Shown in pieces: positions 2,335-39,124 of a stretch of 47,573 nt of DNA. The position numbers were made by a program, and so were the translations under genes. This stretch comes from Lama guanicoe (lineage: Eukaryota): the NCBI GenBank assembly GCA_013239625.1, contig MU053611.1, positions 62,001 through 109,573 on the forward strand. Reading direction: 5' to 3'. The notes beneath the pieces are model-generated. The model was not told where the DNA came from, made no database searches, and worked only from the letters and a program-made list of their open reading frames with translations. Position 1 is the first letter of the stretch, and each line of letters opens with the position of its first letter.

Positions 2335-2721
2335 AGCTTTCAGTTGAGCACCGACCATGTCAGCTTAAAGCAGATCATGTTTCAAGAATCAAGAGAAGCA
2401 CAACATGAAAAGCAAAGGAAGAGTGCCAAACTGTGGCTGAGTGAACAGCTGTGGCCTAGATCTAGAGGAGCTGTAACAGTGGTGCTCCCGATTTAAAACG
2501 ACTTCTGTGAAAATTCTGAATGGCAGATCTCAGACAAGCTATATTTAAACATTCACGTATAAAGTTAGCTTTCTTTTCTATCCAGAGCAGTAGCGGACAG
2601 GAATTCAAAGCTTGGCCTCCTAGACAACATCTCACAAGCTCTTCTGTATTTCTTTGTACCTCTCGGTTTATCTCCCTATAAATTAATTGTGGATGTTTAT
2701 ATAGTTAGCACTTGAGAATTG
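2335..2721 (+). pseudogene. Candidate first exon(s) of the RGSL1-like pseudogene; boundaries uncertain
   Basis: Non-repetitive segment reading MFQESREAQHEK... and SGQEFKAWP (cf. RGSL1 NSQWSLWP). The donor is weak. Confidence 0.3.
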
Positions 2722-3029
2722 GTCAACTTAACATTAATATAATGGTAGAAATTCTGATTGTTATTGAAAACTTTTTTAGTAGGTTTAAAGAATAAGACCT
2801 ATTTTGTGTTGAGGAATTGTTATAAACATTTATCAGAAATTACATATACAACATCATGAATAAAGGTGTTTTACAGCATACAAATATATTAAAACTAAAT
2901 TAAGACAGACTGAATTTCTAATGGATGGACTAGTCAGTTTGCTGTGTTTTTGTTTTTAATTGAAGAAGTGAGGCGGTTGTTTAATTGTTGAGGAAATTGG
3001 TTCACTGAGGTCTTCTGTGTAATAAGAAA

Positions 3030-4100
3030 AGGCAGGAGATCATTAGTGTAAACTTGGAGTGAAGAGCATCTTTTTACAAAGGTAATAAGCCCAGAATATG
3101 TAAAGACAAAATACAGACATATGTGACTATATACAAAAGAATTAAAAGGTATGATACATACATTATAAACAGAGTCCAACGACATGTGATAGACTGAGAA
3201 AAATATTGGCAAAATATGGGTCAGATAAAAGGTCAGCAATCCAGCCACCACCAAATGGCTATAGATCAAGAAGAAAAAGACAACCAACCTAAAGAAATAC
3301 CAATCAATTATATGAGTAAGAAGCTTATAGATGTAGAAATCAAAATGTTCAGTGAATCTATGATTTCCCAAGTTTATTCATAGCCTGAGAAATGCAAATA
3401 AAAGGAAGAATATGGTGCTATTTTTAAACTATCAGACTGGTCAAACTTTGAGATATATCGTCCACTGCTAGTAAAAACATGGATAAATGTACATCCTACT
3501 TTACTGCTAGTCAGAGTGTAAATTGCTGCAAACATTTTGGAAGCTAGTCTGGGAATATCTATTAAAACTCATATTAAGTGAACCTTTTGAAATGGCCCAG
3601 TTTGGGAAGCATTCCCATAGCAATTAAATAATTAGGATCTAAGAATACGCATACACAGACACACACTTGGATATTATCGTAGCATTATCCATAGGAAAAA
3701 TTAGTACAGAAAACAACAAAAATAGACAAGGGTAGGTAAATGATTGAATCAAAGGGTGTTGCTTTCATTCAATGTGATAGTCAACAATTATTAATAAGTA
3801 TGTGTTTAATCAATAGCTATTCAAATGGAAGAGTACCCAGGATATACTGTTAAAAGGAAAAAGAAGTTGCAATATGTGTACAAAATGGTCTGGTTTTAAT
3901 AAAACAAATAATTGCAAAAATAAGGGCACCATTCATATGGGTTTATAGGTTTGTGTATATTTTTTTAAGCATGAGGAAAAGAGTGTATGGATAACGTCAC
4001 TAAAACTGGTAATTTTGCAGACAGGGATGAGAATTTGAATACAGAATCCATTTGCAACTTGAGAAAAGAATTTAATAAATAGAACCTTAAATATAAATAT
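3030..4100 (+). mobile_element. Ancient L1 (L1ME-type) ORF2 3' end and 3' UTR
   Basis: Degenerate L1 3' motifs (gactgagaaaaatattggcaaaatatgg; agaaatgcaaataaa; gtaaattgctgcaaacattttggaag). Duplicated at about 5464-6534. Confidence 0.6.
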
Positions 4101-4109
4101 TTAATAGAA

Positions 4110-4640: not shown

Positions 4641-7600
4641 ATGCAAGTATGAAATAAGCTATCTGATTCAGCCTTAGTTGAACAAAACTAAGCATACTAT
4701 TTAAGTTTGAGCCCAAATAATTCAAGAAACTACCAGACATGCTTTAGTGGCTATAAAACATGATTCAGTGGTTGGAGCTGATTCTTAATCCATAATGTAT
4801 TCCATGTCCTTACAATTTCTAATTGTTGCTTTATTCTAAGTTCTTTATTTTTTAGTCTTATTCTTTATTCTCACTTGCCTCATGACAATAATTTTTCAGT
4901 ATGTATGAGGGAAAAGATCATGGAACTGAAGTCAGTCACAATTTTTGTTAAGTCCTTCAGAAAATTTCTAAATAGAATATAGTACATTTCTCAATTTATA
5001 GTTTATTGAGTTACAGTCTTACATATAATAAGCATTTTTAAATGCCTTTGTCTATATTTGAGATAAATTTCAAAATGAGTATCTATAATGTAAAAATATC
5101 TTTAAAGTCTAAAAGCAAAGAATAGGAGTGTGGTATAACAGCATAGTACTACACCCCAAACCAGTAAATTAGTCTGAATTTTCTTTTTTTTTTTTTTTAG
5201 AAAACTTTTTTAGTAGGTTTAAAGAATAAGACCTATTTTGTGTTGAGGAATTGTTATAAACATTTATCAGAAATTACATATACAACATCATGAATAAAGG
5301 TGTTTTACAGCATACAAATATATTAAAACTAAATTAAGACAGACTGAATTTCTAATGGATGGACTAGTCAGTTTGCTGTGTTTTTGTTTTTAATTGAAGA
5401 AGTGAGGCGGTTGTTTAATTGTTGAGGAAATTGGTTCACTGAGGTCTTCTGTGTAATAAGAAAAGGCAGGAGATCATTAGTGTAAACTTGGAGTGAAGAG
5501 CATCTTTTTACAAAGGTAATAAGCCCAGAATATGTAAAGACAAAATACAGACATATGTGACTATATACAAAAGAATTAAAAGGTATGATACATACATTAT
5601 AAACAGAGTCCAACGACATGTGATAGACTGAGAAAAATATTGGCAAAATATGGGTCAGATAAAAGGTCAGCAATCCAGCCACCACCAAATGGCTATAGAT
5701 CAAGAAGAAAAAGACAACCAACCTAAAGAAATACCAATCAATTATATGAGTAAGAAGCTTATAGATGTAGAAATCAAAATGTTCAGTGAATCTATGATTT
5801 CCCAAGTTTATTCATAGCCTGAGAAATGCAAATAAAAGGAAGAATATGGTGCTATTTTTAAACTATCAGACTGGTCAAACTTTGAGATATATCGTCCACT
5901 GCTAGTAAAAACATGGATAAATGTACATCCTACTTTACTGCTAGTCAGAGTGTAAATTGCTGCAAACATTTTGGAAGCTAGTCTGGGAATATCTATTAAA
6001 ACTCATATTAAGTGAACCTTTTGAAATGGCCCAGTTTGGGAAGCATTCCCATAGCAATTAAATAATTAGGATCTAAGAATACGCATACACAGACACACAC
6101 TTGGATATTATCGTAGCATTATCCATAGGAAAAATTAGTACAGAAAACAACAAAAATAGACAAGGGTAGGTAAATGATTGAATCAAAGGGTGTTGCTTTC
6201 ATTCAATGTGATAGTCAACAATTATTAATAAGTATGTGTTTAATCAATAGCTATTCAAATGGAAGAGTACCCAGGATATACTGTTAAAAGGAAAAAGAAG
6301 TTGCAATATGTGTACAAAATGGTCTGGTTTTAATAAAACAAATAATTGCAAAAATAAGGGCACCATTCATATGGGTTTATAGGTTTGTGTATATTTTTTT
6401 AAGCATGAGGAAAAGAGTGTATGGATAACGTCACTAAAACTGGTAATTTTGCAGACAGGGATGAGAATTTGAATACAGAATCCATTTGCAACTTGAGAAA
6501 AGAATTTAATAAATAGAACCTTAAATATAAATATTTAATAGAAGTAAACAGCATTTCTCTACTTGGCACTTATTTTAGTGTAAGGAATGAGATAGGAATC
6601 AAACTTTACTTTCTCAAAGATTAGTTAGTTGTCTGAGCACCCTTTATTGAATGGCCCATCTTTTCGCCAGTCTGAAATGTTATCTTGTACGAAATCCTCA
6701 TATTAATCTGTCTCATTCTGTACTGCTATTTATTTCATGGCTTTAATTTCTGTCACTTTAAAAAACAGTCTATTATAAAACTGAAAAACTCAGTCATTAC
6801 TCTTATCACAGTTTAGTTAGATCCCACCACACATGAAATTTGGCATATAAAGTTATTTATCATTTTGTCAAATTCAAAAAAAATTCTACTCAACATTTGA
6901 TTAGGATTGCATTTCATTTATAATTTTGTTTAGGGAAAACTAATATCTCACTATATTCAATAGTTCTTTCCCCAAAGTATGTATTTTTATTTATTCAAGT
7001 ATTCTTCCAGGACATTAGAAAATTTTTTGTTTTCTTCCTATCTGTTATGCACATTTTTTATTTGTGAATGTGTTATGCAAGTATGAAATAAGCTATCTGA
7101 TTCAGCCTTAGTTGAACAAAACTAAGCATACTATTTAAGTTTGAGCCCAAATAATTCAAGAAACTACCAGACATGCTTTAGTGGCTATAAAACATGATTC
7201 AGTGGTTGGAGCTGATTCTTAATCCATAATGTATTCCATGTCCTTACAATTTCTAATTGTTGCTTTATTCTAAGTTCTTTATTTTTTAGTCTTATTCTTT
7301 ATTCTCACTTGCCTCATGACAATAATTTTTCAGTATGTATGAGGGAAAAGATCATGGAACTGAAGTCAGTCACAATTTTTGTTAAGTCCTTCAGAAAATT
7401 TCTAAATAGAATATAGTACATTTCTCAATTTATAGTTTATTGAGTTACAGTCTTACATATAATAAGCATTTTTAAATGCCTTTGTCTATATTTGAGATAA
7501 ATTTCAAAATGAGTATCTATAATGTAAAAATATCTTTAAAGTCTAAAAGCAAAGAATAGGAGTGTGGTATAACAGCATAGTACTACACCCCAAACCAGTA

Positions 7601-8075: not shown

Positions 8076-8165
8076 GAAATGGTGAAGAAAATCCAATAAT
8101 ACCTACACTGTACACATAATACTTGCAGATGTTAAAAAAAAACGTTGGTCTTCAGTGATAAAATG
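8076..8165 (+). pseudogene. Pseudo-exon (90 nt)
   Basis: ccgag|...atg|gtaaaa. Ends KKRWSSVIKW (cf. RGSL1 AKYKGLLTW). Contains stops. Confidence 0.35.
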
Positions 8166-8879
8166 GTAAAACACCTGTTGGCAAAACAGATATAACTATA
8201 GTTATACATTCTCAATATATCAAAAGTTTTAACATCTATTTTACAAACTTTGAAACATCTTTGGTTTAGAATTTCCTCTATTTGGTCTTTTTCTATCCTT
8301 AAAGCATTTAATAATTCTGAACCAATATTTTACCCAAGTTTTTAATAAATCACTTAAAGACAACAAATGGATATGATCCCAATTAAATAACTAAGTAAGG
8401 TTTCAATGCAGAATAGTTTTCTTAAAATGAGACAAGCTGAAATAGAATTGATACATTTATAATGTGAGAAAGTACCAAAATATTTAAATGCAGAGGCTTG
8501 CAGAAAAGTAAAAAGCCAAGACTTCAAAAGGATCAGAAAGGGCAAACAAAATAGTCTTTTTGGCACAACAAATACTAAGTAATTCAAATAATATCAATAA
8601 TATTAAGTACATTTGTGTTCCTTGTAGCAAACCCTTACATTCTCAACATAAACTATCTAGTCTCATTATACCTTTGTCCTCTGTGTCCTCCATGCAAATA
8701 GTCATGTTCATGCAGCATTCTTTCCTTTATTGTTATAGCTTCAGTGGTTGAAGTGTTGACCCACTTCCTTCAAGAGCTGCCTCAAGGTCTTCTTCTTCAG
8801 GAAACTTTCTGTTAGCATTCTAACCCACATCAATCTTCCCATTCTCTGAAATACCAATATTATCAATATCATGCATTTT

Positions 8880-13746: not shown

Positions 13747-14428
13747 AGCATCTGACCTCAGCCTCCAGAGGGAGCCTGACCAGCATACCCACCATGTAAG
13801 AGCACAACACCCGCTGTGTTGGGAGGGGGCGCAATCTGCTTGCCAACAGGCACTGGGAGCAGCACAGACCAGAGGTGCTAACGGGGGCCTCTGGAAGCAA
13901 CAAGCTGAGTTCATGAAACAAGGCAAAGACAGAAAGACCTACTCATAAAATCATTAAGAGAGCACAGTCTCTACAGGAACACATCCACATTTTTTTTTCT
14001 TTTTTTCTCATATATATTTTCTTTAACTTTTTAAATATTTACTTTTTAAACAATTGTGTATGTCTATGTTTTTAATTCCTTTAAAATGTTTCTTTTAAAA
14101 TATTTCTATTTTTATTATTTTTTTAAACTCGTTTCAATTTCAGTTTTATTTCCCTTGGCTTTGTTCTCCTATTATTGATTACGCTCAGTTTTCAAACTTT
14201 TTGTTCTTTCCCCCTCTTTTAAGATTTTTACAATACGTCCCAACTCAATTTTTATTTCGCTTCAACTTGTTCTTCTGTTATTGGTTATACACAGTTTTCA
14301 AAAGTTTTATTTCTTGTTTTTTAAAATTTTCTTTTTTTTTAAGTAATGCTTTAGATAGATAAATAAATAAACTCCTTAAGGGCCACAATAGATGACTGAT
14401 ACTCCTTAAGCAACAGTGCCAGAGAGAT

Positions 14429-15330
14429 ATGAGCAAGATGAAGAAGCACAGGAACCATTCCCAATTAAAAGAACAAGAGAAATCCCCTGAAAGAATGATG
14501 AATGAAATAGACTTTGATGGCCTACTAGATCAAGATTTCAGAAAAGGGGTGCTAAAAAGTACTGAAGGAACTAAAAGAGATAGTGTTTAGAGACATAGGA
14601 TATGTCAAAAATGAAACTAAAGCTATAAACAAGAGCCAATTAAAATTGGAAAACACATTTGCTGAGATGAGAACTGATCTAAAGGCTGTACAAAGCAGGC
14701 TAGATAATGCAGAGGAACGAATAAGTGACCTAGAAGACAGGACAACAGAAAGCACCCAATCTGAACAGCTGAGAGAAAAACAAATAAAAAACAATGAAAA
14801 CAATGTAAGGGACCTATGGGATAATATAAAGCGTGCCCATCTATGCATAATAGGGGTTCCAGAAGGGGAAGAAAGAACAAAGGGGATTGAAAAGGTATTG
14901 GAAGAAATCATGACTGAAAACTTCCCAAACCTAAAGAAAGAATCAGATATCCAAGCACAGGAGGCTCAGAGGGTCCCAAACAGGAAGAACCCAAACAGAC
15001 CCACACCAAGACATACCATAATCAAGATGGCCAGAGTCAACGATAAAGAAATGATCCTAAAGGCAGCAAGAGAAAAACAAAGAGTGAGTTACAAGGGAAC
15101 CCCCATAAGGCTCTCAGCTGATTTCTCAACACAAACTCTACAGGCCAGAAGGGAGTGGCAAGAAGTATTCAAAGTCCTGAATGAAAAAAAGATGCAGCCT
15201 AGGATACTTTATCCAGAAAGGCTATCCTTTAGGATAGAAGGAGAGATAAAGAACTTCACAGACAAGGAAAAACTAAGAGTCTAGTAAAACTAAACCCATG
15301 CTAACAGAAATATTGATAGAGCTACTCTAA
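14429..15330 (+). pseudogene. L1 ORF1p (frameshift near 14555, premature stop at 15282)
   Basis: ATG at 14429. ORF 14583-15284 has the conserved RPTPRHTIIKM, PIRLSADFS and QPRILYP motifs. Confidence 0.92.
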
Positions 15331-15741
15331 ATAGAAAAGAAGCAGTATGCTACAGAAATGAGAAACTCATAAATGAAAAGGTGATAACTACCATGAATTA
15401 CAAACAGAATAAACACATAATTGTAAAAGAAGACATCTAAATCATTAAGCGTGGGAGTGGGAGACAATAAAATATAGAATTTTTTTTCTTCTTTTTTTAA
15501 AAAAATTCTTTGTTCTTGGTAGGATGGGTTTGAGATTATATTACTATCTGTTGAACACAAATAGTTACAGTAACAGGTTAATATACATATAAAAGAGGGT
15601 AACCACAAGCCAAAAACTTACAAGTGAGTCACAAAAACTAAATAAAATCCTTGAAAATACAAAGGAAAACTACCAAACCACAAAAGGAAGAAGAAAGGAA
15701 CAAAGAGGAAATACCAAATCAACTGCAAAACTAAGTTCAAA

Positions 15742-18700
15742 ATGGCAATAAACACTCATCTATCATTAATTACTGTAAATGTCAATGGACTAAATGCTCC
15801 AGTCTAAAGACGTAGAGTGGCAGACTGGATAATAAAGCAAGAACTTTCAATACGCTGCATACAAGAGACCCACTTCAGGGAGAAGGACATATATAGATTG
15901 AGAGTGAAAGGATGGAAAAGGATAGTCCATGCAAATGGAAAAGCCAAAAAAGCAGGTATAGAAGTACCGCTTTCAAACAAAATAGACTTTAAAACAAGGG
16001 CCATAAAAAAAATAAAAAAGGACATTTTGTAATGATTAAAGGAGTAAGACAAGATGAGGATATTACAATCATTAATATATATGCACCAAACATAGGAGCA
16101 CTTAAGTACATAAAACAAATACTAACAGAGATAAAGGGGGAAATCGATGGGAATACAATCATTGTCGGAGATTTTAACACCACATTAACATCACTACACA
16201 GAACTTCCAGACAGAAAATAAATAAGGCAACAGAGAAATTAAATGATACAATAGAAAAATTAGATTTGGTGGATATTTTCAGAACATTACACCTCCCAAA
16301 AATAGCATATACATTCTTTTTAAGTGCACATGGAACATTTCCTAGGATTGATCATGTACTTGGGCACAAAAGAAGCCTCAGCCATTTTAAGAAGATAGAA
16401 ATTATCTCAAGCATCTTTACTGACTACAAAAAATGCCATGAAACTAGAAATCAATTACAGAGTAACAAAGGAGAAAAAAAATGAAAGCACGGAGATTAAA
16501 CAACATGCTATTAAAAAACCAATGGGTCAAAGATGAAATCAAAGTTGAAATTAAAAACTACCTTCAGACAAGAGAAAATGAAAACACAACAACACAAAAC
16601 TTATGGGACGCAGCAAAGGCAGTGCTAAGAGGGAAGTTTATAGCGATACAGGCCTTCCTCAAAAAAGAAGAGCAATCTTAAATGGACAATCTAACCTAAC
16701 AGCTAAAAGAACAAGTAAAAGAAGAGCAAAAACACCCAAAAGTCAGCAGAAGGAAGGAAATAATAAATATCAGGGAGGAAATAAATAAAACAGAGATTTA
16801 AAAAACAATAGAAAAAAAAAAAAAGTCAAACCAAAAACTGAGTTTTTGAAAGAATAAATAAAACTGACAAACCTCTGGCCAAACTGACAAAGAAGAAAAT
16901 AGGCAAAATAAGAAAGGAAAATGGAGAAATTACAAACAATAACACAGAAATACAGAATATCATATAAGAATATTATGAACAACTATATGGAAACAAAATG
17001 GATAACCTAGAAGAGATGGACAAGATACTGGAAACATACAGTCTACCAAGACTGAATCAAAAAGAAACCGACCACTTGAACAAACCAATCACTAGAAATG
17101 AAATCCAATTAGCAATAAAAAAACCTCCCTAAAAATAAAAGTCAGGACTGGACGGCTTCACCGGGGAATTCTACCACACATACAGAGAAGAACTTGTACC
17201 AGTCCTTCTCAAACTCTTCCAGAAGACTGAAAGAAGGGAATATTGCCAAACTCATTCTATGAAGCCACCATCACCCTGATACCAAAACCTGGCAAAGACA
17301 CTACCAAAAAAGAGAACTATAGGCCAATAACACTGATGAACATAGACGCAAAAATCCTGACCAAAATATTACCAAATAGAATCCAACAGCACATAAAAAA
17401 GATTATACACCACAATCAATTGGGGTTCATCCCAGGGACACAAGGATGGTTCAACATATGTTAATCAATCACTGTACTACATAACATCAACAAGAGAAAG
17501 GACAAAAACCACATGATCATCTCAATAGATGCAGAAAAAGCATTTGATAAAATTCAAAACCCATTTATGATAAAATTCAAATCCATTTATGATAAAAAAA
17601 AAACCCATCTATGATACCAAAGTGGGTATAGAGGGAACATATCTCAACATAATAAAAGCTATATATGACAAACCTACAGCCAGCATAGTTCTCAACGGTG
17701 AAAAACTCAAAAGCTTCCCACTAAAATCTGGGACAAGACAAGGATGCCCACTATCACCACTCCTATTCAACATAGTCCTGGAAGTCCTAGTCACAGCAAT
17801 CAGACTATCACCACTCCTATTGAACATAGTCCTGGAAGTCCTAGTCACAGCAATCAGACAAGAGAGAGAAATAAAAGGGATCCAAATTGGAAAAGAAGAG
17901 GTAGAAGTGTCACAATATGCAGATGGCATGATGCTATATTTAGAAAACCCTAAAAGGTCCACACAAAAACTACTGAAACTAATCAAAGAATTCAGCAAGG
18001 TAGCAGGTTACAAGATTAACGTTCAACAATCAGTTGCATTTCTTTACACTAATGATGAATCAACAGGAAAAGAATGTATAGAAACAATCCCCTTTAAAAT
18101 AGCATCCAAAGGTAATAAAATACCCAGGAATAAATCTAATCAAAGAGTTGAAAGACTTATGCACAGAGAACAATAAAACATTTTTGAAGGAAATTAAACA
18201 AGACTTTAAAAATTAAAAGATCTCCCATGCTCCTGGATTGGAAGAATCAATACTGTTAAAATGGTCACACTGCCCAAGGCAATCTGCAGATTTAATGCAA
18301 TCCCTATAAAACCACCCAGAACATATTTCACAAACCTTGAAAAAAGTCATAATACAATTTAAATGGAATCACAAAAGACCTAGAATTGCCAAAGCATTAC
18401 TGAAGAAAAAGAAAGAGACTGGAGGAATAACTCTCCCAGACACAGACAATACTACAGAGCTACAGTAATCAAAACAGCATGGGACAAAAACACATATGGA
18501 CTAATGGAACAGAACAGAGAGCCCAGGAATTAACTCACAAAATTTTGGTCAACTAATCTTTGACAAACGAGGCAAGAACATACAATGGAATAAAGACAGT
18601 GTCTTCAGCAAATGGTATAGGGAAAACTGGACAGCAGCATGTAAAGCAATGAAGCTAGAAGACTCCCTTACACCATACACAAAAATAAACTCAAAATGGA

Positions 18701-19597
18701 TCAAAGGCTTACACATGAGACAAGATACAATAAACCTCCTAGAAGAAAACATCGGAAAAACATTATCTGACATACACTCAAAAATGTTCCCCTAGGGCAG
18801 TCTACCCAAGCAATCGAAATAAAAACAAGAATAAACAAGTAGGACCTAAATAAACTTAAAAGCTTTTGCACAACAAAAGAAACCATAAGCAAAACAAAAT
18901 GACAACCTATGGAATGGGAGAAAATTTTTTCAAAACATGAAAGTGACAAAGGCTTAATCTCTAGAATATATAAGCAGCTCATAGGACTTAATAAGAAAAA
19001 AAGAACAACCCAATCTAAAAATGGGCAGAAGACCTAAATGAGCAATTCTCCAAGGAAGAAATACAAATGATTAATAGGGACATGAAAAAAATGCTCAATA
19101 TCACTAATTATCAGAGAAATGCAAATCAAAACTACAATGAGGTATCACCTCACACCAGTCAGAACGTCCATCATTCAAAAGTCCATAAATGACAAATGAT
19201 GGAGAGGCTGTGGAGAAAAGGGAACCCTCCTACACTGCTGGTGGGAATACAGTCTGGTGCAGCCACTGTGGAAAACAGTATGGAGATTTCTCAAAAGAGT
19301 AGGAATACACTTACCATATGACCCAGTAATCCTACTCCTGGGCATATATTCAGAAGGAACCTTACTTCAAAAAAAACACCTGCACCCCACTGTTCATACC
19401 AGCACTATCTACAATAGCGAAGACATGGATACACCCTAAATGCCCATCAACAGATGACTGGACAAAGAAGAGGTGGTATATTTATACAATGGAATACTAT
19501 TCAGCCATAAAATGACAACATAATGTCTTTTGGAGCAACACGGAAAATGTCACCATATGTGAAATAAGCCAGAAAGAGAAAGAAAAATATCATATGA
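15742..19597 (+). pseudogene. L1 ORF2p (endonuclease / reverse transcriptase), multiply disrupted
   Basis: Endonuclease motifs (NIYAPN, IIVGDFN, RIDH) and RT motifs ([33 protein letters not shown]). The catalytic F/YADD motif reads YADG at 17916-17927. Confidence 0.95.
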
Positions 19598-20014
19598 GAT
19601 TGCTTACATGTGGAAACTAAAAAAAAAACAAAAAGACAAAACAAAACAAGAAACAAACAAACAAAAAAAAAAAGAAAAAAGAAAAGGAAAAGACAAATGA
19701 ACATAAATACAAAACAGAAACAGGCTCATAGACATAGAATACAACTTGTGGTTGCCAGGGGTGGTGGGAAGGGATAGACTGGGAGTCCAAAATTTGTAGA
19801 TAGTGCCATGTATATATAGAATAGATAAACGAGATTATGCCGTATAGCACAGCGAAACATATGCAAGATCTTGTGGTAGCTCTTGGTGAAAAAGTACGCA
19901 ACAATGCACATATGTATGTTCATGTATAACTGAAAAATTGTGTTCTACACTGGAAATTGACACAGCATTCATTGTAAACTGCCTACAACTCAATAAAATA
20001 AAATTTAAAAAATA

Positions 20015-20200
20015 TACATTGTCTTGTGCCATTCTCAAAACAACACTTTGAAGTATGGTGTGTGATTATTTCTGTTTTCACATGATAAGACTGATGTGCC
20101 AAGAGATGGCCTGATTAAACTCATTTAGTGTACAAACAGTAGAATAGGTCAGAGTTGGAACCAAGCAGTTTAGTTCCATAGCTTATACCTGACCACTGTT
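20015..20200 (-). mobile_element. MIR remnant
   Basis: ccattctcaaaacaacactttgaagtatgg...agagttggaaccaagcagttt. Confidence 0.55.
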
Positions 20201-22879: not shown

Positions 22880-23009
22880 GTAAGATTTTTAAAATGAAAT
22901 AAACTGAAAACTAGTTTGTCAACTGAAAGACAGTGGCCACATCAATTGAAGAATGTCATGTATTACTGCAGTCCCTTCTTTGTATTATTGACTCCTAAAA
23001 TTTGGTCCA
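22880..23009 (+). pseudogene. Pseudo-exon
   Basis: tttctttgaacatcag|...ca|gtaagt. EECHVLLQSLLCIIDS*NLV resembles RGSL1 VDFWILAENILSIDEMDLEV. Confidence 0.5.
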
Positions 23010-24859: not shown

Positions 24860-25238
24860 GACTGAAATTCAACATCATTCTTTTGGAGTAAACCACACCC
24901 ATAAGGCATCATTAAAGATTTCCAGTTTGAACATATTTAACATAGAACAAGGCCATATGTGTTTATAATCGTGCTGAGTGAATCATTCTGGATATTTATG
25001 ACATTTTTTGTCAGTCTTTTAAAGTTGACAGCCAATAACAATATTTTAAAATCTAAGTCCCATTTATCAAGTCTTTCCTTATTATTCAAATCAGTTTTCA
25101 CAGAAACAATAGTTTTCCTCTTTCACACTCATATCATATTGATTTACATAACAACAAATTACTTATGTAATGACACTGACAAGTGCAACAGATAGAAGCA
25201 GATTGGAAATCAGCGCTATTGATTTATTGATAGAAGAA
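24860..25238 (+). pseudogene. Larger pseudo-exon; 5' boundary uncertain
   Basis: Donor gaa|gtaagt at 25239. Includes ORF 24959-25195, and its end reads QIGNQRY*FIDRR (cf. RGSL1 CAGNPFRDHLKK). Confidence 0.35.
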
Positions 25239-27037: not shown

Positions 27038-27284
27038 AGAGAACAGACTTTATCTGGCTTTATTCTTTCTGGAAGTTTTCAGTACCACACCAAATCCTGA
27101 ATTCAAGATTAGACTGGGGGAAACAATATGATTATAATTACCGTGCAACGAGCTTTCGTCCTCATCAGCGGAACACTGGAGGCGCAAGGGAAGGACATCA
27201 TCTCTAGACTTTCAGTTCTTTGCTAAAATGGCAACTTCTAGTCAATTATCCCCTACCATGTTATTTTAAATTGTCACTTCCCAC
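27038..27284 (+). pseudogene. Pseudo-exon, RGS-like domain
   Basis: atttctttcctccgtag|. ENRLYLALFFLEVFSTTPNPEFKIRLGETI and LEAQGKDIISRLSVLC*NGNF*SIIP resemble RGSL1 ...QHFLSVLL...NAIFRHLLGDRI... and LPLKSQTIQGLKELLPSGDVIPWIP. Confidence 0.6.
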
Positions 27285-27443: not shown

Positions 27444-27520
27444 ACCTTAGAACCAAGCCTGGAGCTCACCTCTATATGTCAGATTCTTTTTCACACATGA
27501 TCTTTCACTGTTGACAATAG
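27444..27520 (+). pseudogene. Pseudo-exon (77 nt)
   Basis: gttctcttttcag|...ag|gtcagg. TLEPSLE.../HLYMSDSFSHMIF resembles MLSPWYDEFLDEEDYWFLLF. Confidence 0.5.
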
Positions 27521-27749: not shown

Positions 27750-27912
27750 GGTAAAGTCTGAAGCTGTGTATTACTCATTGGGTTTATTGTGTGACGCAAA
27801 ATGTACTGTGGGATCCCCAAAAAAGAGTTGGGGAATGTTAGTTGGAGTTGACTGTGGGATGTTCACTGGGATATACTATGAAGTGACTGTGGAGATGCTT
27901 TGTCTGTGGAAG
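27750..27912 (+). pseudogene. Pseudo-exon (163 nt, frame still open)
   Basis: ttcttcttgcatctgtag|...aag|gtgggt. AVYYSLGLLCDAKCTVGSPKKSWGMLVGVD resembles RIQQSLELSQALADMKEMDYRQWRKIATED. Confidence 0.55.
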
Positions 27913-28585
27913 GTGGGTATCTGGTAGACAGAAGCAAATGAGGTCCCTGAGACACGAACAGATGCAGAAGTTACTGGGGCATCCTACTGGAATCAAATCA
28001 AATCTTTAGCTCTGAGTACCTTATAATGAGCCAAATCTCCATTGTCACATAATTTCTTAATTAGTCACTCATTCTGGCTTCCTTTTCTAAGCAGTCTATT
28101 ATTGATTGAGTTATTTTACTATTTAATTGTTATTCAAATTTTTATGGAATTGTACCTTGCCTCTTCCATTGTAATTTTTTGAAAGTAGGCACACCTCCAG
28201 CAACAGAGTACATCTCACCTTATAATGATCACTAAACACACACTAAATTGATTCAATACTCTTCCGTAACAACAATGACCACAGTACACCCTTGGGGAGG
28301 GTAGCTGGGGGTAGCATGAAGAAAGATGTCAAAGATTCACACTGAGCACTATTATAGGTCATATAATTTTATTTGCACATTTGTATATATTTGTGCATGC
28401 CTGCTAAGCAAGGCTATTCAGGAAATGCCACAAGGTCATTTAGAAAGCAACTGAAGGATGGAGAGGGAATAAATGATTTAATCAGTATCCTTAAAACCAG
28501 TTTATGCTTTTTTTTAAACTTTGCAAGTAGAAAATGATAAAAGCAGCACAGTTTCATTTTATTGTCATGCCTCTTGTCATTTCAG

Positions 28586-28768
28586 CAAATATATATATGC
28601 CAAATCTAATTTTAGGATAATATGTAAGCAATTCTAACTTGTCCCACAGTAAATCTCTGAACTCTATGGCAGCCAAGCTAAGAAATACAGAACACAGGCT
28701 GTTCCACTTCAAATTAAAGAAGTCGCCTTATTGAAAGGTTGCAAAGAGGTATTCTGTTGAGTGTACAG
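28586..28768 (+). pseudogene. Pseudo-exon
   Basis: cttgtcatttcag|. One frame reads SNFRIICKQF*...KEVALLKG, resembling DDYKIYCEKA...RKMSLLKR. Confidence 0.5.
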
Positions 28769-28834: not shown

Positions 28835-28925
28835 AAATGCTTTCAAACTTGTACCAGAAAATGAATTTCTATAAAGGGCCACAGAGCTCCTTTGAGTAGC
28901 ATAAACAAGATGTTCGAGCAAGATG
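28835..28925 (+). pseudogene. Pseudo-exon
   Basis: Long pyrimidine tract then ataccag|...atg|gtatcc. (R)NAFKLVPENEFL*R resembles RNLTEVLL...REFLKER. Confidence 0.5.
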
Positions 28926-29149
28926 GTATCCGTGGACACAGCAGCATGTCTTTAATTGGATATACGTGCATTTGCTTTTTACCACTCTTGTCTATTGTAA
29001 TGTTTCTGTGCTTCCAAGGACATTTCTTAAAAATTAAAATAATACTGAAAGAAATTTCACTGGAAAGTGAGCTACCGCCCTACAGGACACTTGAATTCTT
29101 AACCTAGAAAATGGGCATTAGTTGATACAAACCTGATAACTCCCATTTC

Positions 29150-29490
29150 AGCAAACACCTTGACTTGTCTTACATTTATTTATATTCCCCCACGTCCTTG
29201 GGTAATAGCTTTTAATCATTGGCCTGCTGCTCTTTTCTCTATGTATACTCCTTCCCTTAGATACCTCTTTTATTTCCAAAGCTTTGATCTCACTTCTGTA
29301 CATACAGCTCCCAAATCTTTATCAACATCAACTTACTTCTGTACTCCAGAGACATAGCTATATGTACCTAGTGGACATTTCTTACTACAAACCTACTCAT
29401 CTCTTCAATTTCAAATGTCAAGGCCTAAAGTCAATATTGTATCTACCCATCTTCACTCTTTTCAAAATTTCCTAATTACTGTTGAGAGTA
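29150..29490 (+). mobile_element. L2 fragment
   Basis: ctctatgtatactccttcccttagat...cagctcccaaatctttatc...cctagtggacatttct. Confidence 0.6.
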
Positions 29491-29920
29491 CTATGGAGCG
29501 GAGCTGTGGATCAAGATGGTGATAATAAGAGAAGGAATCCTGGAGCCAGTTCAATGTAATCAATCTGATGTGCAATGAACAATGGAAGTTATAAAAGATG
29601 TCCAACTTAGACATTGATCTGTGCCAGGAACACATCCATTCTCTTCATTTGACCAAGTTAGTAATACACTTTCCCAGTGATACCACCTCTCTCTCTCTCC
29701 TTTTATCTGAACCCAAATGTCACTGTAGTTTTAACCATCACTTCTTGTATCTTCTAGATGACATTTTTAGTAAGAAAGGTTAAGAACTTACTAGATATTG
29801 TTTTTAGCTAAAAAAAAAGTCTTTCTAATAAGTGTCTGAAGAATTAAAAGTCCTCCATCATTTCTATATAATGCCTTAGAACCAAGTGCACTGTTTCTGC
29901 AGTTTCTTTTTTTCATTTAG

Positions 29921-30085
29921 GTGGAAATATACGTAGAATTTTCTCAAGGAACTAGACTTTTTAATAGAGAATATTTTTCTCAAGACATTCCAATTCCATT
30001 CCTTCAAGATCAATGATGGAAAAGGAAGAATATTCACCATATTTTATTATGATTTCAAACTCAAATAATAATTTTCTATGAATTT
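29921..30085 (+). pseudogene. Pseudo-exon; 3' boundary uncertain
   Basis: tttctttttttcatttag|...|gtatgt. LIENIFLKTFQ resembles RGSL1 LIENVIKTFFQ. Confidence 0.55.
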
Positions 30086-30106
30086 GTATGTACCTACTAG
30101 GCACCA

Positions 30107-30305
30107 GCAAGATGTAGTGGAAAAAGCATGGCTGTTGTACTCAGCACATCTGGCTTTAAATACTAAGTCCACCAGAAATCCTAGGTCCACAACCTACTTG
30201 CAGAATTACCTCAGACAAGTCATTTAACTCTGTGAAGATAAGGTTTCTTTATTTTTGAAGTGAGGATAATAGTGCCTATCTTATGAGTTCATTTTAAGGG
30301 TTACA
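30107..30305 (+). mobile_element. MIR SINE
   Basis: gtagtggaaaaagcatggct...cctcagacaagtcatttaactctgtg...tgaggataatagtgcctatct. Confidence 0.7.
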
Positions 30306-30879
30306 GGCAAATGGTTCTAACTATCTTCCCAATTTATTTTTGGTGAATAATTCTTAGCATTCCTCCCATGATGAGTTTTCATCTCACAGCATACAAGAGG
30401 TCATCTGTTTTTAATTCACTCATTCATTGAACCAACATTTATTGGGCACAGGTGAGTACCAGGAGCTGTGCTAGGCAACTGATAAGAAAGATGCAAACTC
30501 TTATAAAAGAGGTCCAAGTTTAAGTGGGGAAGTAAACAAGAAAAAAAATTAGAAAAATAGGATAAATACTTTAATTGAAGTATCCACAAGGTTACCACAC
30601 TCTTTACAATAATAGATTTCCCAGAGCTATTTGGACGTTTTCTTCCTTATGACTGGTCAGGTCTCCTATCCAAGTCCTTACTCCCAGGCTTCAAGAGATG
30701 CTTTCCATTAAATTATAATTCTTCTTTTCTGGGTTCTTAAGAAATGGATGAGAAACGTCAATTTTGTTTTTTATTAGCACTGAGACTCACACAGAAACAA
30801 GATTTAGAGATCAAGGATATGTGTCATCCAGCAAACTGCTGGAGGCTGTGTTGACACTGAAAAGGTTCATCTGATTATA

Positions 30880-32030
30880 TTTTCAGAGCATCTTTACTGA
30901 AGTATAATTGACACACAATAAACTGCACATATTTAAAGCATACAACTTGGTAATTCTGAAATAGGTATGTACCTGTGAAACACTTGCTAGAATCACAATA
31001 ATGAATATATTTATCATCCTTTAAGTCTCCTTCTGCTGCTTTGTGATTCCTCCCACCTGCCCCTCCCTGTCCACATCTCCTCATCCCCAAGCAATCACTC
31101 ATCTGCTTTCAGCCACTTATATATTAATTTGCATTTTCTGGAATATTATATAAATGGAATTAACAGTATGTACACTTTTGTCTGGCTTTTTCACTTAGCA
31201 TGATTATTTTGAGATTCATTCATGTATTTTGATGTATCAGTAGCTCAGGTCTTGTAATTAGTAATATTCTGTGTGGATATACCACAATTTATTTATCCAT
31301 TCTGGGTTGTTTTCAGTTTGGGGTGATTATAAATAAAACTGCTATAAATATTCATGTATATACCTCTGTATGGACATATGCTTCTATTTCTTTTGGATAA
31401 ATACCTATGAAGTGCGATGCATAGGTAATTTGGTAGATACATATTTAATTTTGTAAGTTGTTGTCCAACTATCTCGCAAAGTGTTATGCATTTCCACCAG
31501 CAGAGTGTGAGTGTTCCTGTTTCTCTACATCCTCAACAATAGTTGATATGGTCAGACTTTTTAATTTTAGTTATTCTAACAGATATATATTAGTACTTAA
31601 TGTAGTTTTAATTTGCTTTTTCCTAATGGGTAATGATGCTGGACATTTTTCAAGTGATTATTTGTCATGTGTTTCTTTGGTGTTTCTTTGTCTTTCAAAG
31701 TCATTTGCCCACTTTTTATGTCTTTGTGTATTCTGGATACAACTCCTTTATTAGATATGTGATTTGTAATTATTTTCTCTCCATCTGTAGCTTGAATGTG
31801 TGATTTTTGAAAACAAAATTTTCTTAATTTGGTAAAGTCCAACGTATCGGGGTTTTTTTGCTTGTTGTTTTCTTTTTAAATTCTGGAGCTGCATATAAAA
31901 AACTGTTGAGTACCCCAAGGTCACAGAGATTTTCTACTATATTCTCTTTAAGATGTTTTTATAGTTTTAACTTTTACATTTAGGTCTATGGTATGTCTTG
32001 ATTTAATTTTTATACATGAGGTGTGGTTTA
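30880..32030 (-). mobile_element. L1MD-type 3' end
   Basis: ctttactgaagtataattgacacacaataaactgcacatatttaaag...tttacatttaggtctatg. Confidence 0.85.
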
Positions 32031-32049
32031 ATAGCCAGAATTCCTAACA

Positions 32050-32282
32050 CATTTGACCCTTGAACAACACTGGTTTAAACTGCAGGGGTCTACTTATAAG
32101 CAGATTTTTTTTTTTCAACGAAGACTCACTCCAGTCTTACATGATCTGTAATCTGCCTTGTTGGTTGAATCTTCAGATGAGAAGCCATGGATACAGAAGG
32201 CTCAATGTAAAGTTATACACAGATTTTTTACAGTATGGAAGGTCACAGCCCCTAATCTCCCACATCATTTGAGGGTCAACTG
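32050..32282. mobile_element. Tigger2a/MER8-type MITE (TcMar-Tigger)
   Basis: Terminal inverted repeats catttgacccttgaacaac ... tttgagggtcaactg. Confidence 0.8.
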
Positions 32283-32295
32283 TGCTGTGTTCTAG

Positions 32296-32355
32296 CCACT
32301 ATACTTTATGTTATAATATGATAAGCAAATTTAGGGAGTATGGGAAAATGGAAAG
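32296..32355 (+). pseudogene. Pseudo-exon (60 nt)
   Basis: gttctag|...aag|gtaaga. Reads HYTLCYNMISKFREYGKME. Confidence 0.4.
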
Positions 32356-32757
32356 GTAAGAAAAATAAATAGAATCATGATAGAAAAAAGTTGTAATAAG
32401 CTTGACTGATGACATATGTTGGATCCAATGAATTAAGTGAATTGGTAGCAGAAACAAGTATGGACAAAATAAATCAGTAATTTTTAGTGATCTTAAGAGC
32501 AATAATAATAAACCATTTCATTAACAGATATATTATTTTGCTACAGTATTAGCATGATACACAGAGTCATTCACAGTCTGTCCTCATCTTCTTTGCCAAC
32601 TTTTCTAAACTTACTCTTCATGAATTCTAATTTATTAATCCCTCACGGATTCATACTTTTCTTTAGCATGCTGTACTTTTTCTTCAAATTTCATGCATTG
32701 AAAGCCATGGACTGATGTCATTCTCTTTCAACTCAGACATTCCTAATCATCTAAGTT

Positions 32758-33419
32758 CATTGTAAAGACTTCTGCCTTCACAGAAGTCACTTTTCTGTTG
32801 GCAAAGTGAGTTGATACTTCTCTGTCTCTAGCACCTGGAGCACACTTGTTACCGCACTGTGTGTGCTGGAAGTGTTCAGCTTCCCTACACCACACTGCAT
32901 TGTGAACACTTCAAGTAGAAAGGACAGGGCTCATTAAGGAAGAGGAACATAGGATAGTGAGAAGATTAAAAAACTCAGCTTTTGTTCTTTCTTTTTTTAA
33001 ATTAATGATAAAGAAGATAAGGTGTGTATACACACACACACACACTGGAAGTAGTAACTCAGCCTCACAAAGGATGACATCTTTTCATTTCTGACAACAT
33101 GGATGGATCTTGAAGGTATTACACTAAATGAAACAAGTCAAACATCACCCCATTGTAAAGATTTCTGCCTTCACAGAAGTCACTTTTCTGTTGGCAGAGT
33201 GAGTTGATACTTCTCTGTCTCTAGCACCTGGAGCACACTTGTTACCGCACTGTGTGTGCTGGAAGTGTTCAGCTTCCCTACACCACACTGCATTGTGAAC
33301 ACTTCAAGTAGAAAGGACAGGGCTCATTAAGGAAGAGGAACATAGGATAGTGAGAAGATTAAAAAACTCAGCTTTTGTTCTTTCTTTTTTTAAATGAATG
33401 ATAAAGAAGATAAGGTGTG

Positions 33420-33450
<31 letters not shown>

Positions 33451-33545
33451 TGGAAGTAGTAACTCAGCCTCAAAAAGGATGACATCTTTTCATTTCTGAC
33501 AACATGGATGGATCTTGAAGGTATTACACTAAATGAAACAAGTCA
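32758..33545 (+). repeat. Slightly diverged tandem duplication (32758-33140 / 33151-33545) with a 10-nt spacer
   Basis: Direct alignment shows about 4 substitutions plus different T-run and (CA)n lengths. The spacer is aacatcaccc. Confidence 0.92.
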
Positions 33546-33846
33546 GATGGAGAAAGACAAATACCGTATGATTTCATTCATATGTGAAATACAAAAAACA
33601 AATACAATAAACGAACAAACAAAAACAAACATGCAGACACAAAGAACAGAGCAGTGGTTACCAGAGGAGAAAGGATGAGGGGAGGGTGAAATGGGTAAAG
33701 GGCTCAACCGTATGGTGACAGACCAAAACTGAATTTTTGGTGGTAGGCATGTTATGAGTGTATACAAATGTAGAAATATAAAATCGTATGTATGAAATGT
33801 ATATATTATAAACCAATTTTATATCAATAAAAATAAATTTTAAAAA
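33392..33846 (+). mobile_element. Laurasiatherian-type L1 3' end with (CA)n
   Basis: acaacatggatggatcttgaaggtatt...agtggttaccagagg...tcaataaaaataaa. Partial copies at about 33000-33140 and 35835-36065. Confidence 0.85.
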
Positions 33847-34091
33847 TCCCCAACCCTCTGCTTGTAAACAATTGAATGGACTGAGGGACATTATTTGTAG
33901 AGAATTTCGCAGGGGCTAGGTTATCTGAAGGACTCTGTGTGTGGAAATGGGATCAGACTTCATAGATGCAGATACTTTTTAGGGACACAAAATAGATATA
34001 TTTCAGGTCATTATAAAAAGGAGTTTGCTTTTATACAGTTAAACTTGCCTGAAGTAATGATCTATTTTAAGAAGCTTACTCCTGTTAACAG

Positions 34092-34154
34092 TTTGTTCAA
34101 TATATGATCTATAATTATTTGGCAGCGATGTTACAGATGAAATTAAAACATTTG
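34092..34154 (+). pseudogene. Pseudo-exon (63 nt); duplicate at 36311-36373
   Basis: cctgttaacag|...ttg|gtgagt. Confidence 0.5.
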
Positions 34155-34425
34155 GTGAGTCTAGATAGAAGTCTATCTATTAAAATTTGCAATTATTTAA
34201 ATTTGGAAACTTGAACTCTTTATTCAGACCTTGTCCAAGACTGGCAGATGTTTCACAAATGTCTTTCCTTTCCTTTATTTTCCCCTGCTTGCTTTCCATC
34301 ATTTTCCATTTCACTGCCATTAGCCAGCCCTAAATGAAAGAATTCCAGCAATTAATGCAGCTTAGCTTCTTAACGGGGATGTCTACATCCAACTTGTGTC
34401 TGTTTTAATTTATTATTTCTAACAG

Positions 34426-34505
34426 AGAGATGTTTTGAAGACTTCCATGAACTTATTCCCTCTAACCTACAGAATCATGGTTGATGACTAGAAGTTATTG
34501 GGCAT
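34426..34505 (+). pseudogene. Pseudo-exon; duplicate at 36645-36724
   Basis: ttattatttctaacag|. RCFEDFHELIP resembles RGSL1 KWFKDYQDLFP. Confidence 0.5.
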
Positions 34506-34519
34506 GTATTAATTGCTTC

Positions 34520-35015
34520 CACCATCCACTATTCATCTCATTTAGCCTTCGCAACAGTCCTCTGAGGTATTAGTAATATCCTTATTTTATATCCAAGGAA
34601 ACTTGCCCAAGGTCATGTAACTAGTAAGCAATGAAGATGGGAATCTTCCTGGTCTGATTCCAAAACTAAACCGTTAAACATTCTCCACCTTCTCCCCAAA
34701 CACCTTATTCTGACTCCCAGTAGCTGTATTTGGTTCACACTGTTTATCCACCCTGATTTTCCACTGGTTATTGTCCTATATTAACTTATTTCAGATGAGG
34801 CAATCAGTTCACTATCCTCTGAATGTTTCTCATATATTCTTCATATAATATGATAATTTTCTTAGTTTTTCTCAACTTTAGTTTCCTCTTCAGTAAAAAA
34901 AAAAAAGTATACTACTACTACTTACTTCATAAGGCTCTTGTGAGAGTTAGATGAGAAAACCTTGCATAAAGTATAGACCAGGCACATAGTAAGCTTTCAG
35001 TTATTAGCTGTCATC
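34520..35015. mobile_element. Two MIR remnants (about 34520-34690 minus, about 34860-35015 plus); duplicated at about +2219
   Basis: aacttgcccaaggtcatgtaactagtaag; tttagtttcctcttcagtaaaa...cacatagtaagct. Confidence 0.65.
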
Positions 35016-37844
35016 ATCCTCACAATTACTGTTTACATATTCTAGTAATAATTTATAAAGGGGGAATTTTATTATATTTTAGAAATGTATAATAAAAAAG
35101 CACCATACAAATTCACATTTGAACCTGGCAGGTGTTCATAAATACATTGTAATACTATTGTGAAGGGGATCCATGAATGTAGATCCACTGAGTTATTGCT
35201 AGGCTACCTTGCAAAGGTGCCTTCTACAAAAATTCCTTTGACTTTCACTTATTTAAATTAGCCTACATTAAAAGACTGCTCTGTTATGTTTATTGCTTAA
35301 GGTAGTATTAGTGCAACTTAGTAGATTCAAATATTCTGCACAGAATTTTAACTAAAAACTAAATTTCAAGATAATTTGGCACTTGGTTTTAAGGAAAATG
35401 AAAACAAATTGATGAATCTTAACATTATAAAAATAAATGGCAAAGGTATCGGAATCATTAGAAAAATGTTTAGTAAACATGTATTCTGAATTAAAGACTG
35501 TAAAGGACTTATTTTAAACATTTTGTTTTCTTTAAAGAAACCTAGTCTTTGGGGTAAAATGAAAGAAAAAAACCAGTAACTTAGTAGAAGTTTACATTCT
35601 TGGATCTTTTATATTTTCTCCATTAGGAGGCTTAAAGCATGAAACATTAACTTACAAATAAAAGGAAACACAAAGATACATCAAGTAGTTACAAAAAGCA
35701 ATGGAGCAAGATGTTGAGGTAAAATTGGCTGGAGACTGATGTCGGAAGGATCAAAAGCAGAAAGATTCGGGCCTCAGAAAGTGCAATCAGAGACTGTCAA
35801 ATTTCACTGATATCTCAATGCAGCGTGCAGATTAAATAAACAAACAAACATGCAGACACAGAGAACAGAGCAGTGGTTACCAGAGGAGAAAGGATGAGGG
35901 GAGGGTGAAATGGGTAAATGGCTCAACTGTATGGTGACAGACCAAGACTGAATTTTTGGTGGTGGGCATGTTATGAGTGTATACAAATGTAGAAATATAA
36001 TATCGTATGTATGAAATGTATATATTATAAACCAATTTTATATCAATAAAAATAAATTTTAAAAATCCCCAACCCTCCGCTTGTAAACAATTGAATGGGC
36101 TGAGGGACATTATTTGTAGAGAATTTCACAGGGGCTAGGTTATCTGAAGGACTCTGTGTGTGGAAATGGGATCAGACTTCATAGATGCAGATACTTTTTA
36201 GGGACACAAAATAGATATATTTCAGGTCATTATAAAAAGGAGTTTGCTTTTATACAGTTAAACTTGCCTGAAGTAATGATCTATTTTAAGAAGCTTACTC
36301 CTGTTAACAGTTTGTTCAATATATGATCTATAATTATTTGGCAGCGATGTTACAGATGAAATTAAAACATTTGGTGAGTCTAGATAGAAGTCTATCTATT
36401 AAAATTTGCAATTATTTAAATTTGGAAACTTGAACTCTTTATTCAGACCTTGTCCAAGACTGGCAGATGTTTCACAAATGTCTTTCCTTTCCTTTATTTT
36501 CCCCTGCTTGCTTTCCATCATTTTCCATTTCACTGCCATTAGCCAGCCCTAAATGAAAGAATTCCAGCAATTAATGCAGCTTAGCTTCTTAACGGGGATG
36601 TCTACATCCAACTTGTGTCTGTTTTAATTTATTATTTCTAACAGAGAGATGTTTTGAAGACTTCCATGAACTTATTCCCTCTAACCTACAGAATCATGGT
36701 TGATGACTAGAAGTTATTGGGCATGTATTAATTGCTTCCACCATCCACTATTCATCTCATTTAGCCTTCGCAACAGTCCTCTGAGGTATTAGTAATATCC
36801 TTATTTTATATCCAAGGAAACTTGCCCAAGGTCATGTAACTAGTAAGCAATGAAGATGGGAATCTTCCTGGTCTGATTCCAAAACTAAACCGTTAAACAT
36901 TCTCCACCTTCTCCCCAAACACCTTATTCTGACTCCCAGTAGCTGTATTTGGTTCACACTGTTTATCCACCCTGATTTTCCACTGGTTATTGTCCTATAT
37001 TAACTTATTTCAGATGAGGCAATCAGTTCACTATCCTCTGAATGTTTCTCATATATTCTTCATATAATATGATAATTTTCTTAGTTTTTCTCAACTTTAG
37101 TTTCCTCTTCAGTAAAAAAAAAAAGTATACTACTACTACTTACTTCATAAGGCTCTTGTGAGAGTTAGATGAGAAAACCTTGCATAAAGTATAGACCAGG
37201 CACATAGTAAGCTTTCAGTTATTAGCTGTCATCATCCTCACAATTACTGTTTACATATTCTAGTAATAATTTATAAAGGGGGAATTTTATTATATTTTAG
37301 AAATGTATAATAAAAAAGCACCATACAAATTCACATTTGAACCTGGCAGGTGTTCATAAATACATTGTAATACTATTGTGAAGGGGATCCATGAATGTAG
37401 ATCCACTGAGTTATTGCTAGGCTACCTTGCAAAGGTGCCTTCTACAAAAATTCCTTTGACTTTCACTTATTTAAATTAGCCTACATTAAAAGACTGCTCT
37501 GTTATGTTTATTGCTTAAGGTAGTATTAGTGCAACTTAGTAGATTCAAATATTCTGCACAGAATTTTAACTAAAAACTAAATTTCAAGATAATTTGGCAC
37601 TTGGTTTTAAGGAAAATGAAAACAAATTGATGAATCTTAACATTATAAAAATAAATGGCAAAGGTATCGGAATCATTAGAAAAATGTTTAGTAAACATGT
37701 ATTCTGAATTAAAGACTGTAAAGGACTTATTTTAAACATTTTGTTTTCTTTAAAGAAACCTAGTCTTTGGGGTAAAATGAAAGAAAAAAACCAGTAACTT
37801 AGTAGAAGTTTACATTCTTGGATCTTTTATATTTTCTCCATTAG

Positions 37845-38117
37845 GAGGCTTAAAGCATGAAACATTAACTTACAAATAAAAGGAAACACAAAGATACATC
37901 AAGTAGTTACAAAAAGCAATGGAGCAAGATGTTGAGGTAAAATTGGCTGGAGACTGATGTCGGAAGGATCAAAAGCAGAAAGATTCGGGCCTCAGAAAGT
38001 GCAATCAGAGACTGTCAAATTTCACTGATATCTCAATGCAGCGTGCAGATTGATGGATGCTACCAACGATATATCAATGGAAATGTCTTTGGCAATACTG
38101 GATATGTTTTTATCAGT
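37845..38117 (+). pseudogene. Pseudo-exon (273 nt); truncated duplicate at 35627-35833
   Basis: atattttctccattag|...agt|gtaagg. TVKFH*YLNA and YINGNVFGN resemble RQEFEDYLHQ and LVKRRIFGH. Confidence 0.5.
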
Positions 38118-38647
38118 GTAAGGGAGGATGTCTGTAAAGATTGATACATTTTGTAGTCTTCTCTCATTGTTCATAAGTGCTTCTGATCATCAGTTACAGG
38201 GCCTGTGCCTCGTTCCCTTTGTGACTTCTATTTGGAAATGGTATATGAGCATGGTTTACCTGCTTTTCCACCTATTTGCCATGCCTCATGGTTTCAGGTT
38301 ATACTATAGGAAGTGTGTGAGTGTGTGTGCACGTGAATGTGTGTTTACGCACATGTACATGATATGTGCACGCATGTGCATTTTTTCTTGTTCTTACTGG
38401 AGTCATTGCCTGCAATTTTTGGTTTCCATGCAGGTGACCAAATAGCCTATTGTCAGATATACGCAAAATACATTATTAGCAACAAAAGATAGATTTTTAG
38501 GTCACTCATGTGCTATATATGCTGGAAAAGACTATCTATGATACCTGTGTGCCATAAAATACCAAGAATATAATATGTTCATCTATGTGCTTAACTGTGA
38601 TACAAAATAAGAAAGCACTTTCAAGTCTTTTTTTTTTTTAAATAAAG

Positions 38648-39124
38648 CCATACTCATCAAAAAAACTTTCTGAATTGGAGGAAATCTTTATTTAAAGAAT
38701 ACTTGTTATTGTCAAAATCTTGTAGCAGTCTGAATACATATACATGGGATTTCCTGAATTTATAAATCTACCTTTGGTGGACAGACTCAATTCTAAGAAA
38801 CATTCATCATGTTAAGCTATTTCCATTTGGGCTGACAGTAAATTGTTCCTGTGAGAACTGTCTGAATGGATGAAATGAGTTCTTTTTTTAGCTCTTTATA
38901 TTTAAGTGAGGTGCACATGACACAACATATTTTAGATAAAAAATGTTCTTGAGTATGGTGAATAAAAATATAGAAAGTAGGTTCCTATTCAATCTGATTT
39001 TTTAATGAAACATAAGATGTTTTCCTTCTTAGGAAGGGTTGTGTAGCCCTCTTGCAGACACAATTTTCCTATACATATTTATTACTGGGTGAAAATTATT
39101 TCACTTAAGATAAATACTGGTTGA
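38648..39124 (+). pseudogene. Last three pseudo-exons (about 38648-38837, 38892-38952, 39033-39124)
   Basis: SELEE/FKEYLLLSKSCSSLNTY, LYLSEVHMTQHIL and NFPIHIYYWVKI resemble RGSL1 SEMEKFNDLVSSAHMLQVNRAY, VNVPEFQKDAIL and VFPVVMYFWKRF. aataaa at 39153. Confidence 0.55.

Follow-up and report, generated by a model that had tools for sequence, protein, structure and literature searches.

The window analysed here is a stretch of 47,573 nucleotides from Lama guanicoe (assembly GCA_013239625.1, contig MU053611.1, positions 62,001 to 109,573), AT-rich DNA of a mammalian type with mostly 30–40% GC. On its plus strand lies a row of short, broken, exon-like segments. Our preferred reading, at a probability of roughly 0.6, is that an RGSL1-family gene other than RGSL1 itself died here very long ago and left an unprocessed pseudogene. 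The idea goes back to a preliminary description of the same DNA, which ended the locus at 39124; read by eye, it runs beyond that point to about 39590.

Exon-like segments along the plus strand

Reading of the three plus strand frames delimited 21 segments, 621 codons in total. The first, a candidate N-terminal segment at 2344..2556, occupies one frame with a single stop and weak splice edges, and its assignment is uncertain: only the last third of its ~70 codons would resemble the RGSL1 N-terminus, the first two thirds being unexplained. A frameshifted candidate exon with the motif SSVIKW follows at 8129..8268 (3′ end approximate). The segment containing VLLQSLL, at 22942..23009, has no good acceptor within 60 nt and is followed by a good donor at 23010. 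Two exon-like pieces with AG/GT edges, 23076-23118 and 23160-23229, lie 41 nt apart and carry none of the motifs listed in the preliminary description. Two more, 23760-23808 (with a GC donor) and 23907-23996 (which starts with SWLLRF), are separated by a 98-nt gap with phases 0/0. One or more further decayed segments possibly lie at 24946..25238, between a weak acceptor and a donor-like site at 25239, with a putative likeness to RGSL1.

The series continues with the longest candidate exon, 27038..27265, which contains the motif NPEFKIRLGETI and is broken by several stops and by one frameshift or more; its 3′ end is approximate, and its acceptor at 27038 ranks in the top 0.2% of 1375 AG sites. 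A 77-nt candidate exon starting with TLEP follows at 27444..27520 (acceptor top 2.9%, donor top 3.4%). The next candidate, 27750..27912, contains several frameshifts, and DNA from another assembly (P0005) reads stop-free across two of the window's frames there. The candidate exon at 28528..28623 is itself stop-free and ends in NFRII, with an alternative acceptor at 28586. At 29019..29113 the acceptor ranks in the top 4.1% and the GT donor has been lost; with its 5′ flank, this candidate is 51% identical to the entry P0002 in the same frame. Two exon-like pieces 35 nt apart, 29758-29885 and 29921-30010 (LIENIFLKTFQ), may be the start of an RGS-like domain, and neither Pfam nor PDB gave a match for them.

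Farther downstream, the candidate exons at 34007-34154 (donor top 1.1%) and 34426-34500 (CFEDFHELIP) both have second copies in a tandem duplicate. The unique 3′ end of another exon-like segment, 38052..38117, enters from the end of that duplicated block and precedes a donor at 38118. Two further candidates lie at 38434-38500 (acceptor top 1.3%) and 38726-38837. A frameshifted candidate exon at 39033..39088 contains FPIHIYYW behind an acceptor in the top 0.5%. The possible last coding segment, 39440..39590, has uncertain edges and a putative likeness to RGSL1. Acceptors at 27750, 27444, and 29921 rank at about the top 3%, and those at 2344, 24946, and 38726 are weak.

Ten motifs had been listed for this strand in N-to-C order. 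Nine are present literally and in that order, starting at 8149, 22960, 23907, 27093, 27444, 28608, 29961, 34431, and 39065; the tenth, SLGL..W..D, is absent from any single frame, with SLGL alone found at 27775.

Lesions, splice signals and phases

The segments are riddled with stops and frameshifts, as had been claimed: 33 stops interrupt the 621 codons, the frame changes inside segments, and the locus holds no long single-frame stretch. Such a disabled reading frame is a mark of unprocessed pseudogenes. The decayed sequence is not a one-off sequencing error, because 0.97-0.98 of the words of 26900-30100 are present in 20 of 24 listed sequencing runs (4 organisms, 7 studies), 13 of them carrying a flag as possible origin of the assembled DNA. 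None of the listed runs with these words is from RNA.

Two kinds of evidence give modest support to a dead multi-exon gene on the plus strand: the placement of acceptors and the phases of junctions. Splice sites were scored with textbook-type frequencies as weights. An acceptor scoring at least 2.3 lies within 60 nt upstream of six of the nine motifs; among randomly chosen positions the share is 19.5% (binomial P 0.003). The test is partly circular, because the segments had been selected with splice sites in view. Reading-frame phases are concordant at seven of ten candidate GT-AG junctions (P 0.02), or at five of eight (P 0.09) when two junctions whose frame or donor was picked after seeing the phase are set aside; two more junctions, with non-GT donors, are concordant as well. 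Purine content, too, is higher in the candidate segments (52.1%) than in the intervening DNA (47.6%), a comparison affected by the pyrimidine tracts, which lie outside the segments by construction. The segments, their order, their many AG/GT edges, their lesions, and the matching DNA in other assemblies are directly observed; that the segments were exons of one gene is inferred.

The locus would resemble unprocessed or unitary mammalian pseudogenes in its putative intron-containing layout, its colinear, decayed candidate exons, its possible remnants of splice sites, and its later repeat insertions. It differs from them in that its stop density is that of background and no living counterpart was retrieved, so that it may be either a unitary pseudogene or a dead duplicate.

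Chance, kinship and orthology

Family membership is a separate matter. About 20 segments would tile human RGSL1 from its N-terminal to its C-terminal end, at an identity of roughly 25-30%. Consecutive segments within 27038-34500 would map onto one unbroken RGSL1 stretch, with the best matches at splice edges, and the segments at 23160, 24950, 38434, 38726, and 39440 would likewise fall in the expected order. The putative likeness covers the order of the segments along the whole protein, the total coding length, and agreement at exon boundaries; the locus differs from RGSL1 in that nearly all window segments are broken or short and identity is low (~43% in the best motifs, roughly 25-30% overall). 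RGS22, the other known member of this multi-RGS-domain family, is the source of the functional analogy drawn below. The call of RGSL1/RGS22 kinship rests on this putative tiling by some 20 segments, judged by eye; none of the database searches below linked the locus to RGSL1, RGS22 or an RGS domain, or bore out the completeness claimed for the gene. The tiling agrees with the preliminary description but is not independent of it.

Many observations weigh against a fossil gene, beginning with the segments themselves, whose frames and edges were picked by eye. Three of the ten junctions are out of phase, and the gaps of 35 and 41 nt are below mammalian intron size. In a non-circular strand test of the core (22800-30100), strong acceptors numbered 8 on the plus and 10 on the minus strand, and pairs 2 and 4; the plus strand thus holds no bulk excess of splice signals. 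The 33 stops are not depleted relative to a background of 6.2% (P 0.21), and they exceed even the mean of 25.6 obtained by simulating a frame that had accumulated 0.6 substitutions per site: the segments are either partly out of frame after insertions and deletions, or wholly non-coding. The ten motif pairs fare no better. Scored by hand, they reach ~190 BLOSUM62 units, with ~33 of 77 residues identical (43%). Ten random 1076-residue proteins, run against 24,454 nt of unique plus strand DNA free of splice-site and contiguity constraints, gave best colinear chains of ten 8-residue matches scoring 271-296. Being below this chance range, the ten pairs alone are no evidence.

Database searches add to the same side. 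In 18 long and 24 short plus strand frames, taken from the window outside 13650-22000 and translated with X in place of stops, Pfam showed no RGS match (PF00615 included); an RGS domain would here be split across several frameshifted exons, each searched separately. PDB gave only chance matches (E 0.5-4.6), with no RGS-family match at E≤10. Word-based protein searches yielded none of 62, none of 3704, and none of 8000 candidates at E≤10, for the two larger sets, unrelated segments of the window were stacked into alignments, in a design adjusted through simulation. Finally, a phmmer search of 1.84 billion representative proteins, with a single frame of 27006-30050 as query, returned only four short unnamed open reading frames (ORFs), from Logan and ENA assemblies and in clusters of 1-2 members. 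These span candidate exons and intervening DNA alike, three of them at 51-67% identity and the fourth at 30-33% across frameshifts, and are read as probable translations of matching DNA from other mammals, not as proteins.

How much such negatives weigh was gauged by simulation. For an intact target, phmmer would recover 0, 4, 44, 97, and 100 of 100 at 25, 35, 45, 55, and 65% identity. With an assumed three-word rule, and across 35-65% identity, the A3 word search would recover 0, 5, 36, and 108 of 150, and the A6 word search 1, 9, 57, and 156 of 200. One type of PDB search would recover 94 of 100 at 45%. Searches would thus mostly miss relatives below 45% identity; the negatives weigh only against a close intact relative, at 55-65% identity or more, and say little on a distant one. 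This limit applies equally to the intact ortholog in other lineages, none of which appeared in the phmmer and word searches.

Several results were set aside. Sub-threshold matches to unrelated Pfam models, such as zf-UBP, were discounted. Two short pieces submitted to the ESM Atlas gave no usable match, which is uninformative either way. Metagenome contigs gave none of 56 candidates and, in a second scan, one of 548: L001, at 5616-5741, with 38% identity by tblastn (E 4e-6 among candidates) on a contig of 50% GC. Neither blastn nor tblastx matched it to the window, and it was judged a chance hit. The plus strand has an excess of acceptors in 38052-39700 (3 vs 0). A control region that holds no candidate exons behaves alike, however (6 vs 1), and strand excess was dropped as independent proof. 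Dating of the gene loss from stop density was also abandoned: since the count equals background, no open-frame signal is left and no date is readable.

The simplest alternative is that there is no fossil gene at all, and that 24 kb of AT-rich non-coding DNA was matched by eye, and by chance, to a protein of 1,000 residues. The higher-scoring random chains, the stops that are not depleted, the missing plus strand excess in the core, and the failure of Pfam, PDB, phmmer, and word searches are all what this account would lead one to expect. However, the chance chains were spared the splice-site and contiguity constraints, whereas the actual segments lie behind good acceptors, with phases concordant above 1 in 3, and the searches are weak below 45% identity. 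Several matches absent from the motif list would also fall where contiguity along RGSL1 predicts. On balance we consider chance unlikely.

A real fossil gene need not belong with RGSL1. The gene-like signals, acceptors and phases, are independent of any family, and the family call lacks tool support; the gene could come from another family, or stand nearer to RGS22 or to an unannotated relative. Neither Pfam nor PDB nor the protein libraries point to a different family, though, and a close RGS22 relationship meets its own difficulty. According to PMC11779644, bovine RGS22 is modelled in PDB entry 9FQR, which the PDB searches never listed (presence of the RGS22 chain in the copy searched is unconfirmed), and those searches gave no RGS22 match at E≤10. 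RGS22 is also described as highly conserved in PMC13443885, so an RGS22 ortholog should have been obvious. Both variants seem doubtful, with a probability below that of chance matching.

A third possibility is that the locus is RGSL1 itself in camelids, an ortholog turned pseudogene in that lineage. In its favour, RGSL1 would be the closest human protein. A dead camelid ortholog should nevertheless reach the neutral baseline between mammals. That baseline, taken from three of the four matching-DNA translations, which were not hand-picked, is 51-67% (top-scoring, and so biased upward), whereas even the hand-picked motifs reach only ~43% against their putative RGSL1 counterparts; identity therefore looks too low. 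An intact target at 55% would be found by phmmer in 97 of 100 cases and none was, a point weakened by the library's consisting of 50% cluster representatives. The neighbourhood differs too: downstream of human RGSL1 comes the 3′ end of RNASEL, but here a likely CpG-island promoter lies within ~1 kb. RGSL1 is also annotated in cattle (PMC11274160). The earlier argument that this is not the ortholog is thus reasonable; judged from sequence, orthology appears unlikely, and a camelid RGSL1 dead in this lineage is the least probable account considered.

Genomic setting and possible history

The candidate segments had also been called non-repetitive, which does not hold for all of them. The window contains three tandem duplications with unit sizes of 2.2-2.4 kb. 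The pairs 2766-5198/5200-7632 and 43107-45339/45341-47573 show zero differences; the third, of 2.2 kb (33623-35833 = 35842-38051), shows 99.5% identity. The last block carries exon-like pieces twice, which is why CFEDFHE occurs a second time at 36650, and its junction splits one exon-like segment. Near-perfect identity and similar size suggest that all three are probably assembly artefacts. Just 5′ of the 2.2-kb block lies a shorter tandem duplication (32758-33545, ~390-nt unit, 96% identity). In addition, 1-1477, which ends exactly at an N gap (1478-2143), is copied at 20488-21963 with 99.9% identity. The order of the scaffold before 22 kb may be unreliable, which bears on the two most N-terminal candidate segments.

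Between candidate exons, 35044-35655 is a minus strand, 78% identical inverted copy of 41480-42116, and thus not unique exon DNA. The two members of this ~610-nt pair, of which the first has a tandem copy at 37262-37873, both begin exactly at a GTAAGT donor, and the second follows the CpG-island exon. Either the start of an intron was duplicated in inverted orientation long ago, or the pair belongs to an unrecognised repeat.

Inside the putative gene, and in the same orientation, lies a LINE-1-like element (14300..20030, approximate limits) with a 242-residue ORF at 14556-15284 and broken ORF2-like frames. The element appears nearly full-length, the 242-residue frame being ORF1-like. A 54-nt tandem duplication lies within it at 17750-17859.

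Downstream, a CpG island at 40700..41500 (GC 67%, CpG observed/expected 0.73) has a plus strand GTAAGT donor at 41480 and is likely the promoter of some neighbouring gene, although no coding exons of a neighbour were recognised within the window. Two motifs near 40806 and 41415 are NRF1-like. A donor-like site lies on the minus strand near 40680, beside the island. Possibly the island is a bidirectional promoter, with a leftward transcript running antisense over the fossil.

If the locus is indeed a fossil of the RGSL1 family, the window may preserve the colinear remains of a third full-length vertebrate gene in the RGS22/RGSL1 family, one that marsupials, monotremes, or sauropsids still possess in intact form and that was lost once, early in placentals. 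We hold this broader proposal tentatively, at somewhat less than even odds. By analogy, the living ancestor would have been a protein about 1,000 residues long that contained several RGS-like domains. The gene probably died early in mammalian history, after which neutral decay and insertions such as the sense-strand LINE-1 would have followed. No protein is predicted to be made today, because the frames are broken.

By analogy with RGS22, and granted the family call, the product of such a third gene would more likely have served as a scaffold in the structure of motile cilia or sperm flagella, as RGS22 does, than as a G-protein GTPase-activating protein. According to PMC13443885 and PMC11779644, RGS22 has four RGS-like domains that lack Gα contact residues; it is a metazoan radial-spoke component, present in motile cilia and sperm flagella, where it stabilises the spokes. 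The terms 'RGSL' and 'paralog' are absent from the text and five supplement files of PMC13443885. Nor do nine of the eleven PhyloCSF supplement files of PMC6886504, those that were searched, contain an RGS22 or RGSL entry. At the level of listings, literature searches gave no report of a third family member, and none of the matches listed has RGSL1, an almost unstudied gene, in its title. An automatic 'RGS protein-like' model may exist in NCBI or Ensembl for non-mammals.

What the locus means depends on which history is correct. As no more than a duplicate that died long ago, it would be a footnote to annotation. If a third family member was lost in placentals, the locus would record a dated loss that can be compared with changes in sperm tails and cilia, and a living copy elsewhere, if any, would be testable for localisation to radial spokes.

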